A DNA stretch of 64,000 bases from a virus. Lineage: Duplodnaviria; Heunggongvirae; Uroviricota; Caudoviricetes. The stretch's first letter is position 1. Every line of letters begins with the position of its first letter. The stretch is taken from the IMG/VR virus record IMGVR_UViG_2718218131_000011, positions 1 to 64,000 of that record. One strand, written 5' to 3'. This document shows, piece by piece, positions 1,693 to 50,225 of the stretch. Made by a program: the position numbers and the translations under genes. Below the pieces are notes generated by a model. That model searched no databases and was not told where the DNA came from. It saw nothing but the letters and a program-made list of their open reading frames with translations.

Positions 1693-2253
1693 ATGACTGG
1701 ACAGCGCATTGGGTATATCAGGGTCAGCACCTTCGACCAGAACCCGGAACGGCAACTGGAAGGCGTCAAGGTTGATCGCGCTTTTAGCGACAAGGCATCC
1801 GGCAAGGATGTCAAGCGTCCGCAACTGGAAGCGCTGATAAGCTTCGCCCGCACCGGCGACACCGTGGTGGTGCATAGCATGGATCGCCTGGCGCGCAATC
1901 TCGATGATTTGCGCCGGATCGTGCAAACGCTGACACAACGCGGCGTGCATATCGAATTCGTCAAGGAACACCTCAGTTTTACTGGCGAAGACTCTCCGAT
2001 GGCGAACCTGATGCTCTCGGTGATGGGCGCGTTCGCCGAGTTCGAGCGCGCCCTGATCCGCGAGCGTCAGCGCGAGGGTATTGCGCTCGCCAAGCAACGC
2101 GGGGCTTACCGTGGCAGGAAGAAATCCCTGTCGTCTGAGCGTATTGCCGAACTGCGCCAACGTGTCGAGGCTGGCGAGCAAAAGACCAAGCTTGCTCGTG
2201 AATTCGGAATCAGTCGCGAAACCCTGTATCAATACTTGAGAACGGATCAGTAA
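1693..2253 (+). CDS. tnpR: Serine resolvase TnpR
   Basis: 186 aa, N-terminal [11 protein letters not shown] catalytic serine motif and C-terminal HTH; Tn21 TnpR-like. Confidence 0.95.
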
Positions 2254-29530: not shown

Positions 29531-29599
29531 AAGTTCCCTCCTACGTTGTCAGGAGGTAATGGTATGCAAAGTAACTTCTCAACCGGTCATGTTGCTTGA

Positions 29600-29631
29600 C
29601 ATCCTCCACGTCCTTTAGAGCGTGGAGGATG
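29600..29631. repeat. Perfect 11-bp inverted repeat hairpin immediately before the intron-like segment
   Basis: CATCCTCCACG-10 nt-CGTGGAGGATG seen directly in the sequence. Confidence 0.7.
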
Positions 29632-29632
29632 T

Positions 29633-30430
29633 GTGCGCCCAGCATGGGCGCGATCTTGGAGGTGAAAGCCCTCCCGCGAGCTGACCACAGCGAGCGAAAT
29701 GAAGTGCAACTGCGTGAGGGCGACCGGGCGTGGGGAGGAAGCACGGAATGAACCCGTGAGCCGATGAACGAGAATCGGATATGAGGCGCGATGGAGCAAG
29801 GCGAGCAGGCACATCACTGCGAAGCTTTCGTGGTCAAGTCGAAGTCGCGCAGATCCGACGGTTGTGCGGGGAAGGATCGCGTTCTTACCTGGGGAGTTCT
29901 CGCCTCATGCCTGAAAGGGCAACGTCGTAAGACGGAGCGAGAAGTCAGCAGAGGCCGTAGTAGTCAGGACTCCGACGAAGGGCCGAACGAGAAGGAAAGC
30001 CAGAAGATATGACTCTTGACAGGACATTGCGTCAGAAGCCGGGGAAGCCCGGTACGGACCCGCATGCCGGGTGGTGTGGCAGGGGCGCAGCCCTTGTGCT
30101 CCCCCCTATGCCGATCAAGCAGAACATTGTGCTGGGCCTCTGACGCAGCTCCTTGATGGTCTTGGCATCGTGCTTAAGTGGATTGGTGTCGTCCCTGATA
30201 GGATCATGGAGGCAGAATGAAACTCAAAAATCCGGGATAGCACGCAAAACAGGCTGCACAAAAAGCGCAGGTTGCGTAGGAGTGAAATCCCGCTCCCAAA
30301 AAATGGTGCAGAAGTTGCGGCAGTGGTCATCCGACGCACTGGAAAATAACAAACCCGCCGTGACCAGAATCGGAGGCCTGAGGGAGTGACCGAAAAACCG
30401 GACAACCCAGGCAGCAAATACCCGCTGGAT
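29633..30430 (+). mobile_element. 5' fragment of a group II intron, no intact reverse transcriptase
   Basis: Begins GTGCGCCCAG (GUGYG boundary); purine-rich, GC-rich, no long ORF; motifs AGCACGG, CGATGA, AATCGGATATGAGG and CGTAGTAGTC resemble domain I-III strings of bacterial introns such as Ll.LtrB (recalled); short ORF at 30153-30389 may be a degenerate maturase start. Confidence 0.5.
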
Positions 30431-30535
30431 GAGGCATGGTTCCGGCAGATAATACCGAAAACCGCCAGACACACTGGATAATCAGTAGAAATAATCCATT
30501 AAAGTTATTATAATAATTGGTCACATTATTATATT

Positions 30536-31099
30536 ATGCTGAACAATAGAAATATGACTATTAATGAACTTAAAGACTGTATTCACTATGAAGTAATTGG
30601 TAGCGAGCGTCCTTTCTCTTGGCGAAAAGCAATTGTTCGCGCAATAAAACATAGAAGAGTTCGTTATTTATTTTGGTGGCGCATATCAAAATATCTTTTT
30701 GATAAAGGCGGATACAGGCGAAAGGTTGCAGGGAAAATAGAACGCTTCATTCTTGACAAATACAATGTAACCGTTCCCTTAACGGTAAATATAGGGAAAG
30801 GGTTTGACATATCTTATCTCAATGGCGTTGTTATCGCTCACAAAGTCACAATCGGTGAAAATTGTTCAATTAAGCCCGGAGTAACTATTGGACTTCGCGG
30901 GGAATTTAATGACATGGATATTGTTATAGGAGATAATGTGACCATTGGTTGTAATGCCACCATTCTTGGTGGCAAAGTGCGTATAGGAAACAATGTCACA
31001 ATAGGTGCTCATGCATTGGTATTGCATGATATTCCTGATGATTCAACATTCATCACTAAATTTCAGTCTGAAGTTATCTGCTCGTCCTCCCGCACATAA
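30536..31099 (+). CDS. Hexapeptide-repeat (left-handed beta-helix) acetyltransferase, WcaB/CysE-like
   Basis: 187 aa with tandem hexapeptide repeats [19 protein letters not shown]...[34 protein letters not shown]; AT-rich; own AT-rich upstream region. Confidence 0.8.
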
Positions 31100-31680: not shown

Positions 31681-34600
31681 TATGCAAGCCTCACAATATA
31701 ATTAAATGCGATGTTTTTAACGGTGTTTTCCGCGTTACCAGCAGCATTAACGGTGATGGTATGTCCATGTGAACCAATCGCAACAGAGTGCGTATGAGCG
31801 CCAATACCAACTGTATGTGCATGCGCCCCTGCACTTGCAGCAGTGCCTGATACTGAGTGGGTGTGTGCACCAGAAGAAGGCACTGTTCCATTCCCCACGA
31901 CCGTGCCACTTGATGAACCATCAAGCCAGTCGAAATTCATACCTCCACTGTTTGGTCTCCTTAATGGAACGGTATGAGTATGTGCGCCAGCACTATTTGC
32001 AGTACCAGATACATTGTGGGTATGTGCACCTGTGTTATTCGTTGGTTTAGTACCGTAATCAAACGACGATGTGGTTTTCGTCCCCAAATCCGTACTGGAT
32101 GCGCTGGCGCTGTGGGTGTGCGATTTAATGCCGTCCTGTTCCTGAGACAATACGGCACGACCACTGGCAGGTTTGCCCTTAATCGTCCAGCCACGCATAT
32201 CAGGGATCACGCCTGACGGATAAGCGGCTGCAAGTTTCGGGTAAGCAGATTTGTCAAAAGTCTGCCCCTGCATTAGGGCATAACCAGACGGAACGGTATC
32301 TGATGGCCACGGGATTGGTGCGCCGACTGGGTAGCTTTCTGGTGGAAGATTTTTCGAGGTATAAACTTCTGCCCAGTCTTCTTCAAAACCATAACCGTCT
32401 CTTGAAGAACGGTAGAACAGACCACCATTTCTGTAATGCGCCTTCATCTGCAATGTCCGGCAACTTCCGACTCCGGTATAGAAGTTAACCAGAATATAGC
32501 TGTCGCCAGAGCGGGTGACATTGTAAGCGCCTGATTCGGCATTCCAGGGAACGCCACCATCCGCATCGGCATATGTATCCGTTGCCCTTCTGGCAAAAGC
32601 AGCCACATGCGCGGCGGTTAAAGTGATATCAGTAGAACCATCAAATGGAACACCGGATATTTTTCTTGCAGTCTGAAGTTTTGTAGCAGTTGCAGCATTA
32701 CCGTTCAAACTACCATTGATGCCGCCAGTAACATTGAGTCCATTACCGATCGTAACAGCACCATTGGCATTGTTAATGATAAGCGGCCTTAACCTATTAT
32801 AGGTTCCTAGGCTGTTACCCGAATCGGTCAACATGAAATATGTGTTTGAACCATCGTTTCGGATAAAGAATCCGTAGTTTCCGTAGGCAATGCGCAGACC
32901 ATTCGCCGATTTGGAAATAATCTCGCCAGCAGCAGTTAATCCGCCAGTTAACGCTCCTCCAGATAGTGGTAAAGCTCCGACATCAGCCGCAGTAGGCTTG
33001 TTTTTAGTGTTATACGCTCTGCGCCATCCTGGTGAATAGCTCGTCCCGTTAAACACATAGACAAACTCCGCATTAGTGAGTGCGCCAGAGACACCTGTCG
33101 TTGTTGCCGTTGTTATACGAATCGTATAATTGTTTGAGCTACTGCCGTTATTAAATACCTCAATAACTGCGCCAGCCAGTGGAATAATGCCGCATCCTGT
33201 TTCGCTGTCTGGTATGGATGCACTATTTGCATACGCCCAGGCACAACGCGCTATCCATGCCTTTGCATTAAAAGCACCATTATCTCGTAGCAGAGTCACT
33301 AATTGCTCTGTTGTTATTGAAGCTCCATTATCACCTGTTACAAGCCAACCAGTAGGAGATGCCGGGCAACCAATATTTGCTGGTGACAGTGAAATATTCG
33401 CAGAACCGTCAAATGAAACCCCATTAATGGTACGCGCTGTTAGCAATTTGGTAGCCGTAGCTGCATTACCGGTTGTGTTCTGGTTACCAGCAATGTTTAC
33501 ACCCGGCAGATTGATATTGGCGGAGCCATCGAATGATACGCCGCCTATTGTGCGTGCTGTTTGCAGTTTTGTTGCAGTTGCAGCATTGCCAGTAGTGCTC
33601 TGATTACCTGTTTTATTCACACCTGGCAGGTCGATGTTTGCGGTACCATTAAATGAAACGCCACCAATGGTTCTTGCCGTTTGTAATTTCGTGGCAGACG
33701 CCGCATTTCCTGTTGTGTTCTGGTTGCCCGTTGTATTTACGCCCGGTATGGAGTCTTTCGATGTATAGACCTGTGCCCACTCAGACCATGCCGCATCTGT
33801 GTTATCTCTTCGGGAGCGAATGAAAACTGGCGCATGTGCACCGCTCGTACCACTCCAGCCAATAAGCAACTCGCCCTCACCAGCAGCACTCGCACCTTTC
33901 ATGTGCAATACGTTGCCATACGTGGTCGGGTAGCTATTGTTGTACGCCTCGTACATTTGAATGCCAGCAGTGCCTTGAGTAGAGCCGCTTAACGCCGTAA
34001 CTCGGCCACGAGATACCAATGTATTAATGTTGATATCGCCTGAGCCATCAAACTTAACACCGTTGATGTTTCTTGCCGTCGCAAGTTTTGTCGCGGTAGC
34101 AGCATTCCCCGTGGTGTTCTGGTTACCTGTTGTATTTACACCTGGAAGATTGATATTGGCCGAGCCATCAAATGCCACACCGCCAATCGTGCGTGCTGTT
34201 TTCAATTTCGTCGCGGTGTCGGCGTTCCCTGTCAGCGCCCCGGTGATCCCGCCGTTGAAAGTCTGGCGCGCACTCCATGTGTTAGCCGTGCTCAACAGGG
34301 GGATCTTTTCACCGCTGGTACCGAGTTCTCTTAAACCAAGGTATTGGATAACGGCCAGTGTGCTTGTTTTAGCCAGAATATCGCGACCGACTGACGTTAA
34401 ATCAGTCTGCGCTACCGTATCCTTACCAGTGAAATAAGGCAGTTTGTTTGCACCAGTCGCAAGGGCAGCGAGCGCGGTTAAAGTTGCATCCAGAGGCTGT
34501 TTGCCTGCCAGCGCATTTGTCATTGTTGTCGCAAAGTTCGGGTCATTGCCCAGTGCTGCTGCAAGCTCATTCAGAGTATCAAGAGCTTCAGGTGATGAGC

Positions 34601-46195: not shown

Positions 46196-46379
46196 GTATT
46201 TTTAAGTCGCGAATGCTATCTTTTCGCATCATATTGACCTTTTAATCGTTCAGGCTTATAGTTCCGCCGTCGTAGCAAATTCTGCGACCGGGTTTAGCAG
46301 CCTGAATACTTACGCGGACAACCGCAGATTTCCGATATTGCGGTATTTTTGTGTCCGTAAACCACGTTACGCCCGAATT

Positions 46380-46460
46380 ATGGTGGGGCGTGATGGGGAG
46401 GCTTCGGCCTGCTGGTTTCGTAAGTGCCAGTCTGCTAACCCCGTCACGTCCTGCCACCTG
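46380..46460 (+). ncRNA. Putative c4-like antisense immunity RNA
   Basis: Structured GC-rich segment (GGTGG...CCACC) between the operator and icd at the position of P1 c4; boundaries approximate. Confidence 0.3.
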
Positions 46461-46507
46461 TTTAGCAGCGGGTCGCAGGTTGTTTATCAACTTACGAGGC
46501 CGTAACT

Positions 46508-49895: not shown

Positions 49896-50018
49896 TACAA
49901 TCGTTGCGGGTGCTTGAGGCTATCTGCTTCAGGCATTACCCGAAAAGCAGATAGAAGAAAGCCCCAGATAACATTACGCGTCCTGCAAGACGCTTAACAT
50001 TAATCTGAGGCCATATCT

Positions 50019-50225
50019 ATGCTTAGCATACGTAGATTAGCCTCTTACCGACCAAAAGGTCAAGGAGAAGCAGGCTATGAAGCAGCAAAAAGCGATGTTA
50101 ATCGCTCTGATCGTCATCTGTTTAACCGTCATTGTGACGGCACTGGTAACGAGGAAAGACCTCTGCGAGGTACGAATCCGAACCAGCCAGACGGAGGTCA
50201 CTGTCTTCACAGCCTACGAATCTGA
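50019..50225 (+). CDS. mok-like reading frame overlapping hok
   Basis: 68-aa ORF overlapping the hok CDS in a different frame, as in hok/mok/sok loci. Confidence 0.35.
   Translation: MLSIRRLASYRPKGQGEAGYEAAKSDVNRSDRHLFNRHCDGTGNEERPLRGTNPNQPDGGHCLHSLRI

Follow-up and report, generated by a model that had tools for sequence, protein, structure and literature searches.

Class C (IIC) group II introns, fragments of group II introns on enterobacterial mobile elements, and introns that have lost their open reading frame (ORF) are all well described (PMC1702495, PMC3522654, PMC2882425). The group II introns of phages were surveyed in 2025, and that survey includes ORF-less introns as well as a IIC intron behind a terminator (PMC12350094). 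Here we describe a 483-nucleotide (nt) ORF-less intron, with the sequence features of class C, in a P1-like (IncY-type) phage-plasmid. It lies in the first 64,000 nt of the IMG/VR virus record IMGVR_UViG_2718218131_000011; we will call this 64-kb stretch the window. We found no literature on this intron in P1-like elements or on IIC introns homing to the ends of the insertion sequence (IS) IS609, but our coverage was incomplete and this is absence of evidence only.

We think it very probable that the element is a non-functional fossil of a class C group II intron, and that it arose by the history proposed below. In brief, exact empty sites define its ends, a full-length relative shows what has been removed from its middle, and the removal extends into the catalytic domain V.

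Boundaries, class and internal deletion of the intron

In two plasmids (L006 and L007) that share the lydA, acetyltransferase, and tail-fibre genes of the window, the site is empty and reads ...CATCCTCCACGTCCTTTAGGGCGTGGAGGATGT|CAAGCAGAACATTGTGCTGGG... without interruption. The junction itself is ...GGAGGATGT|CAAGCAG..., and there is no target-site duplication. The insert is therefore exactly 29633–30115, and both the hairpin that precedes it and the 420 nt that follow it are part of the plasmid backbone. A preliminary description of the window, made by reading the sequence, had put the start of the intron at the same GTGCG but had extended the element to 30430, which is 315 nt too far: 30116–30430 is continuous with the hairpin in the empty-site plasmids. 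It had also described the segment as rich in G+C and purines and without a long ORF, and this is correct (61.3% G+C and 59.8% purine in the insert, versus 49.0% and 48.4% in the window).

The identical arrangement is found in 34 plasmids in PLSDB, and the segment 3' of the intron is found in 36 plasmids (these 34 plus L006 and L007). We found no ORF-less copies at any other site; a "chromosomal" match (H93) has the same P1-like context. No database record with the 483-nt feature annotates it as an intron. Most of the records have no annotation there, and one has hypothetical proteins.

Strings reminiscent of domains I–III had been noticed before, and an Rfam search had been suggested. Two Rfam models for domains I–IV do match above their gathering scores (Table 1), so the group II intron holds up against this check, in which a lack of matches would have refuted it. 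The second match follows the domain I core, which is why we tentatively assign it to the region of domains II and III.

Several features place the intron in class C. The motif AGGAA, which has been described for IIC introns (PMC1702495), is found in the window and in all of the relatives. Intron-binding site 1 (IBS1), the five nucleotides with which the 5' exon ends, is complementary to a loop in domain I (exon-binding site 1, or EBS1), and at the homologous loop of four other relatives the two sites covary (EBS1/IBS1 of CCAAG/UUUGG, AUAAA/UUUAU, CAUGA/UCAUG, and AACG/CGUU). Such short pairing with covariation is how class C introns behave (PMC1702495, PMC3522654). Where IBS2 would lie, the 5' exon has a 12-base-pair (bp) hairpin that abuts the intron, and relatives lie directly after classic terminators in Leclercia (GACGTCCCtcgGGGACGTCTTTTTTAT|GTGCG) and Burkholderia (CGGGCCGCTCgaaaGAGCGGCCCGTTGTCGTT|GTGCG). 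Furthermore, the protein encoded by a full-length copy (L005, from an E. coli chromosome) contains the RVT_1 and GIIM domains, and no HNH or other endonuclease domain was found in it. Its best homologue of solved structure is the GsI-IIC reverse transcriptase (RT; 6AR1, 433 bits), as compared to 149 bits for a IIB RT and 134 bits for a IIA RT. The next matches in PDB (7UIM, 5HHJ, and 5HHL, at 266–313 bits) are presumably IIC RTs as well; the search output gives no class label. Finally, the ribozyme part of the full-length copy is only about 460 nt (1832 nt minus the 1371-nt ORF is 461 nt). By these sequence features, the intron belongs to class C.

Many of the matches were from Sinorhizobium, which suggested kinship with RmInt1 (class D). 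We rejected this, as the matches are to the conserved domains V and VI of IIC relatives in S. meliloti. We also considered that the intron might already have a name in the Zimmerly database (E.c.I#), but a survey paper has no class C intron of E. coli that targets IS609, so we leave it unnamed.

The full-length relative is 1832 nt long and is found in three E. coli chromosomes (3 of 5426 complete E. coli genomes) and one plasmid. Copy L005 (NZ_CP169399.1) has a 456-amino-acid ltrA gene, and we use it as the parent for comparison. Nucleotides 1–420 of the window's intron are 98.3% identical to nucleotides 1–420 of the parent, and nucleotides 415–483 are 94.2% identical to nucleotides 1765–1832. 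The full-length intron has the sequence GCCCGG, where the two segments overlap, twice (at nt 415 and at nt 1765), which implies that 1350 nt were lost by a deletion at this microhomology. The lost DNA begins at codon 16 of the maturase and runs through the 3' part of domain IV into domain V, of which the first 3 nt are missing. The short maturase remnant that had been suspected amounts to 15 codons, and its frame continues through domains V and VI into the 3' exon until a stop codon at 30143. With tblastn, no other similarity to RTs was found anywhere in the window. Thus, this copy lacks the RT/maturase gene of an autonomous mobile intron.

The preliminary description had instead proposed that the intron is truncated at its 3' end, so that only domains I–III and a stub of the maturase remain, with domains V and VI either missing or somewhere in 30100–30530. 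The lack of an ORF beyond the stub fits this, and so does the score of the Rfam model for domains V and VI (RF00029), which is 17.4 bits on the window, below its gathering score of 40. However, RF00029 has no match at all in the intact parent, so it is uninformative for this lineage, and we rejected it as a test for domain V. In its place, we built a covariance model for domains V and VI from eight intact relatives of this lineage. This lineage-specific model has a single match in the window, at 30044–30115 (63 bits, E ~ 4e-11), and it finds nothing in 30116–30535. Intact copies score 90–103 bits, or 27–40 bits above the window, although six of them are training sequences and their scores are somewhat inflated. 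The 3' 69 nt of the intron match the parent and the 3' ends of seven relatives; more broadly, 30047–30125 matches the last 70–80 nt of full-length introns from Ralstonia, Leclercia, S. meliloti, Burkholderia, and Cupriavidus. And the intron ends exactly where the empty-site plasmids have their junction. So a damaged domain V, domain VI, and the terminal GCCGAU are all in place, which refutes truncation at the 3' end, and we give that explanation almost no credence. As judged by alignment, the window's copy is an intron with an internal deletion.

Damage to domain V and decay of the intron

Seven or eight relatives from alpha-, beta-, and gammaproteobacteria all have the same domain V, except for single substitutions in two copies: a C-to-U change in S. 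meliloti (L011), which keeps the pair as a wobble, and a change in R. rhizogenes (L012). It folds into a 10-bp stem, a 2-nt bulge, a 3-bp stem, and a tetraloop. In the window, the deletion altered the first three nucleotides of the stem, and a G in the upper stem (at 30054) that is invariant in every relative has mutated to A. Furthermore, the junction creates a new hairpin (GCCGGG-gaag-CCCGGU, 30038–30053) which, in the predicted fold, sequesters the 5' strand of domain V. The energy of the canonical domain V fold is −22.1 kcal/mol for the parent and −9.9 kcal/mol for the window. When folded in context, the mean pair probability of domain V drops from 0.96 in the parent to 0.00 in the window (and to 0.05 with the deletion alone), and domain V is absent from both the minimum free energy fold and the ensemble folds of the window. 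In other words, the window's copy does not have an intact domain V. In domain VI, which retains the bulged A at the expected distance (7–8 nt) from a 3' AY end, the distal stem is supported by four compensatory pairs among the relatives.

The deletion and the G-to-A substitution together abolish the predicted catalytic hairpin, and we infer that the RNA should neither splice nor reverse-splice.

We also considered that the intron might still be active but non-autonomous, so that it would splice or move with help in trans, from the RT/maturase of a full-length copy in the same host. The two splice sites, EBS1, domains I–III, and domain VI are all intact, and the scores of the models for domains I–IV equal those of the full-length copies. 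By chance, the deletion junction even creates an AGC at the position of the catalytic triad. E. coli does have full-length copies, and one strain series in which they occur (Z1323CEC) is also a source of plasmids with the ORF-less intron. Furthermore, ORF-less introns that are mobilised in trans are known from Thermosynechococcus and have been proposed for some phages (PMC2882425; PMC12350094). However, domain V is predicted not to form and is changed at an otherwise invariant position, all of the ORF-less copies are at one site, and lesions are accumulating in domains I and V. Also, full-length helpers are very rare, and the element is intergenic and, as far as a promoter scan shows, untranscribed. 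On balance, we consider activity in trans unlikely.

The ORF-less introns form two sub-lineages: the window's type and a type that is about 97% identical (L008). Both have the identical GCCCGG junction, the G-to-A substitution in domain V, and a G-to-C substitution in domain VI, and none of these is found in the three full-length copies. The 97% lineage also has a 6-nt deletion in domain I, and an IMG/VR contig (L019) has another substitution in domain V; these extra lesions in later copies indicate neutral decay. Between the sub-lineages, the intron is 96.7–97.3% identical and the adjacent non-coding spacer is 97.2–97.4% identical. (The spacer of the empty-site plasmids is more divergent, at 92–93% identity.) Sequence and predicted folding together point to a dead relic that has been inherited vertically.

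Could the element instead have been co-opted by the P1 family, as a leader, insulator, or promoter-proximal structure (RNA or DNA) for the dar operon or for the acetyltransferase gene? It lies between the late promoter LPdar and the promoter of the acetyltransferase gene, and it has been kept in 34 of the 36 plasmids that bear this module. But P1 itself lacks it, as do the siblings L006 and L007, which have the same flanking genes. It has also diverged as much as the flanking non-coding DNA has and carries indels in its structured regions. Furthermore, the acetyltransferase gene has its own promoter-like site on the 3' side of the intron, and LPdar faces away from it. A regulatory role therefore seems very unlikely, and we prefer the dead relic.

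The homing site and a proposed history of the locus

The preliminary description had noticed an inverted repeat of 11 bp that ended one nucleotide before GTGCG. This is indeed a perfect hairpin, but its stem has 12 bp and it abuts the intron. (Such hairpins are rare: the window has only 6 distinct perfect ones of at least 11 bp, as compared to about 0.25 per composition-matched shuffle.) In the empty-site plasmids, the hairpin is present without the intron.

Part of the hairpin (29606–29632) matches the right end of the insQ/tnpB element next to ydcO, and this match is present in 4381 of the 5426 complete E. coli genomes. Specifically, the 31 nt TCCACGTCCTT.AG.GCGTGGAGGATGTCAA match DNA that begins 13 nt past the stop codon of insQ (TnpB). 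The record for this element has only the annotations IS200/IS605 family transposase and InsQ/TnpB family protein; we take the element to be IS609. The first three nucleotides of the 3' exon (CAA) complete the IS609-type end, ...GATGTCAA, whose terminal TCAA is presumably the cleavage site of the IS, by analogy with IS608.

The full-length introns have the same flanks. At every independent occupied site (L005, L015, and L016), the hairpin is followed by GGATGT, the intron, CAA, and then unrelated DNA. The copy in L005 follows an intact tnpB, while those in L015 and L016 follow a tnpB pseudogene with a variant hairpin. These shared flanks imply that the homing site is the right end of the IS, 3 nt inside its terminus. 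So, by this comparison, the hairpin is the target of the intron, as expected for class C, and is neither a part of the intron nor a feature of P1. In the window, the hairpin and its tail have no IS body beside them and start within 2 nt of the end of the homology to P1.

When set against the right end of IS609, the window has (in 29606–29632 plus CAA) the right-end hairpin with two differences in the loop, the 10-nt tail, and the terminal TCAA. It has no tnpA, tnpB, or left end; the stem is lengthened to 12 perfect bp; and only 31–34 nt or so are in common. We also noticed that GACATCC (29598–29604) resembles GACAGCC, which lies 15 nt farther upstream in the right end of IS609, but this match is too short to be significant. 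If it is real, then the IS-derived DNA would begin exactly at the end of the P1 homology (29597), and the 12-bp stem would have resulted from a 15-nt deletion.

We propose the following history. A P1-like lineage in which lydC, cin, and the C segment had been replaced by the acetyltransferase module would have carried a solo 34-nt hairpin, of the IS609 right-end type, just beyond LPdar. An endonuclease-less IIC intron of about 1.83 kb would then have retrohomed into the hairpin by reverse splicing and synthesis of complementary DNA, with the site defined by the stem-loop, the pairing of IBS1 (GAUGU) with EBS1 (ACAUC), and CAA in the 3' exon. Next, the deletion between the GCCCGG repeats would have removed 1350 nt, including the maturase from codon 16 on, the 3' part of domain IV, and the start (3 nt) of domain V. 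Since then, the relic would have passed vertically down at least two sub-lineages, which gathered further lesions. The most parsimonious order is thus the solo hairpin, insertion of the intron, deletion of the ORF, and the split into two lineages. We place the hairpin before the intron because the empty-site plasmids, with their more divergent spacer, already have it.

Some observations weigh against this proposal, besides the AGC at the deletion junction. The argument for loss of activity is from thermodynamic prediction and conservation, and protein binding or tertiary contacts could stabilise the weakened domain V. No full-length copy at the P1-like site, which would represent the intermediate, was found in PLSDB, the complete E. 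coli genomes, or five IMG/VR contigs, so we infer that insertion came first and the deletion later. And the identification of the hairpin as a solo copy of the right end of IS609 (IS200/IS605 family) is from similarity over about 31 nt, with no IS body nearby.

In the region 2142–3001 of L005, the full-length copy begins 40 nt past the stop codon of tnpB/insQ, 3 nt inside the IS609-type right end. In a TnpB ωRNA, the scaffold would end and the guide would begin at the intron's insertion point near the terminus of the IS. This point would also lie between the hairpin that TnpA recognises and the putative TCAA cleavage site. One could speculate, and we think it rather doubtful, that the E. coli IIC lineage is a specialist of IS609-type right ends that interacts functionally with the transposon, and that the solo hairpin of P1-like plasmids is a footprint, a decoy homing site, and the joint at which lydC, cin, and the C segment were replaced. 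If so, the IS might carry the intron along, or the intron might disable the guide RNA of the IS when it is not spliced out, and both the intron and the transposon would exploit hairpins in single-stranded DNA. As a separate observation, interplay between the intron and the guide RNA or the transposase may exist at L005, as it does for the group I IStrons (PMC10690162). The right-end hairpin of IS609 as a homing site for IIC introns may matter for research on TnpB and ωRNA.

Genomic setting, related relics and known systems

In the window, darA, hdf, lydB, and lydA lie on the minus strand, up to 29530, and the homology to P1 ends at 29597, just beyond LPdar. At the equivalent place, P1 has LPdar, lydC, cin, cixL, and the invertible C segment, while the window has the hairpin and the intron, the 420-nt spacer, the acetyltransferase gene, a tail-fibre assembly gene, and the S gene. 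Comparison with P1 and searches of the window thus bear out the view that the element sits at the position of cin and the C segment and that both are gone; lydC is absent from this place as well.

Table 1. Intron, homing site, and neighbouring features, by position in the window.
Feature	Positions	Strand	Evidence and remarks
Serine recombinase (Resolvase + HTH_7)	1708–2232	+	36% identity to P1 Cin; sole Cin homologue; about 28 kb from the position of cin in P1
Perfect 12-bp hairpin, arms ACATCCTCCACG / CGTGGAGGATGT, 10-nt loop	29599–29632	+	5' exon; stem-loop of the homing site; backbone
IBS1, GAUGU	29628–29632	+	Last 5 nt of the 5' exon; pairs with ACAUC at 29811–29815
Group II intron of class C (IIC), 483 nt, without ORF and with an internal deletion	29633–30115	+	Exact insertion relative to empty sites
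Domain I core	29714–29884	+	Rfam group-II-D1D4-3 (RF02001), 96.9 bits; gathering score 32
AGGAA (ε' bulge)	29736–29740	+	Typical of IIC
EBS1 loop, ACAUC	29811–29815	+	Complementary to IBS1
Match to group-II-D1D4-1	29902–29983	+	RF01998, 46.8 bits; gathering score 35; same score in L005
RT/maturase ORF remnant, first 15 codons (MTLDRTLRQKPGKPG)	30009–30053	+	tblastn, 14/15 residues identical to the parent
Damaged domain V	30044–30075	+	First 3 nt of stem ACC to GAA; G to A at 30054
Deletion junction, GCCCGG	30047–30052	+	Microhomology; the full-length intron has it at nt 415 and at nt 1765
Domain VI and 3' end	30077–30115	+	Alignment and consensus fold; bulged UAU, candidate branch A at 30108, terminal GAU at 30115
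3' exon and backbone spacer (not intron)	30116–30535	+	Contiguous with the hairpin in L006 and L007; segment in 36 plasmids
Sigma-70-like promoter	30486–30514	+	Promoter scan; upstream of the acetyltransferase gene
Hexapeptide acetyltransferase gene	30536–31099		
S tail-fibre gene, 1368 amino acids	31680–35786		
Single cix-like site, TCCAATACCTTGGTTTAAGA	34329–34348	-	Inside S; 2 mismatches to P1 cixL

We considered that cin or an invertible segment might be hidden nearby, but we rejected this: the window has one cix-like site and, 28 kb away, a resolvase that is 36% identical to Cin. The cix-like site is at the joint between the constant and variable parts of S, and it appears to be a "frozen" leftover of the invertible C segment, given that it has no partner site, that there are no large inverted repeats at 29–40 kb of the window, and that no cin is adjacent. 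The ORFs of the spacer (30116–30535) have no matches in Pfam. An inverted repeat of 23 nt (83% complementary; 30507–30529 and 30933–30955) flanks the start of the acetyltransferase gene and is probably due to chance. Elsewhere in the window, Rfam matches at gathering level identify the C4 antisense RNA and its a1/b1 target from the P1 immunity region and the sok antitoxin RNA (46256–46308, 46376–46461, and 49908–50082), which are expected features of the P1 family and of plasmid maintenance.

Other relics of related introns are common. A fragment of about 155 nt that is 94.8% identical to the 3' end of the RT gene of this intron family is found in about 1358 of the 5426 complete E. coli genomes (for instance, at 724793–724947 of NZ_CP026085.1, from DH5alpha); it is an older and widespread relic of the same family. 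Many F-type or enterotoxigenic (ETEC) plasmids of E. coli (H53–H63 and H97–H119) have 5' fragments of related introns, corresponding to nucleotides 1–178 (about 92.7% identity) or 38–258 (about 90.5%), and the latter fragment is annotated as a hypothetical protein. In R. rhizogenes pRi1724 (L012, 2301–2369) and in Cupriavidus (L014, 2301–2371), there are domain V–VI ends of the same lineage with no upstream match to the Rfam models for domains I–IV. The R. rhizogenes copy has a mismatch in domain V and has lost the bulged A (TTT instead of TAT). Both are probably further copies that were truncated at the 5' end or have decayed. Finally, the Leclercia plasmid pIMP-Z96-1 (L003, 3501–7260) has a tandem pair of group II introns, of which the second (GTGCGCCAGGCATGG...) begins 2 nt after the end of the first (...GCCGAT|GC|GTGCG); RF00029 recognises only the second.

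These results correct the anatomy of an unannotated 483-nt feature that is found in several viral contigs as well as in about 34 sequenced P1-like phage-plasmids, and they add an example from the P1 family to the recently opened list of phage group II introns. The empty site, the full-length parent, the microhomology deletion, and the later decay form a clean and datable series that shows the extinction of a bacterial intron on mobile elements. A practical lesson is that the Rfam model for domains V and VI misses this IIC lineage, so the absence of a domain V match should not be taken to mean truncation. The window's intron is itself an ordinary molecular fossil; the relation between the intron and IS609 is the most interesting loose end, and it concerns the parent copies more than the relic.

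How does this intron compare to known systems? Like the class C introns B.h.I1 of Bacillus halodurans, GsI-IIC of Geobacillus stearothermophilus, and the intron of O. iheyensis, it has a small ribozyme with GUGCG at the 5' end, AU at the 3' end, and AGGAA in domain I, and the RT of its parent, which is nearest to the GsI-IIC RT, similarly lacks an endonuclease. Class C introns insert a few nucleotides after a DNA stem-loop, and the window's copy directly abuts one. The short IBS1–EBS1 pairing is shared as well (5 bp in the window, versus the 3–4 bp quoted for B.h.I1), as are a putative single-nucleotide IBS3 and, for the relatives, the position behind Rho-independent terminators. But the window's copy has lost its RT gene and its domain V is broken, and the E. 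coli lineage uses as its stem-loop the right-end hairpin of an IS200/IS605-family element instead of a terminator or an attC site.

Among ORF-less introns, those of the Thermosynechococcus elongatus family (PMC2882425) and of phages (PMC12350094) also keep both ends and have lost the ORF in domain IV, and the window's copy, like the phage introns, is on a phage-type replicon. However, in those introns the catalytic core is intact and mobilisation presumably occurs in trans, whereas the deletion in the window enters domain V and the copies are at one site.

The fragments of E.c.I3, E.c.I4, and E.c.I9 in the Enterobacteriales (PMC3522654) differ from the window's intron, which is of class C by its sequence and was assigned to no named E.c.I, and whose target is an IS609-type end instead of IS3, IS679, or an Rhs-associated IS. 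In both cases, though, there is an inactivated copy on a large mobile element, with a homing site inside an IS, and the dynamics are of the extinction type, with rare full-length copies.

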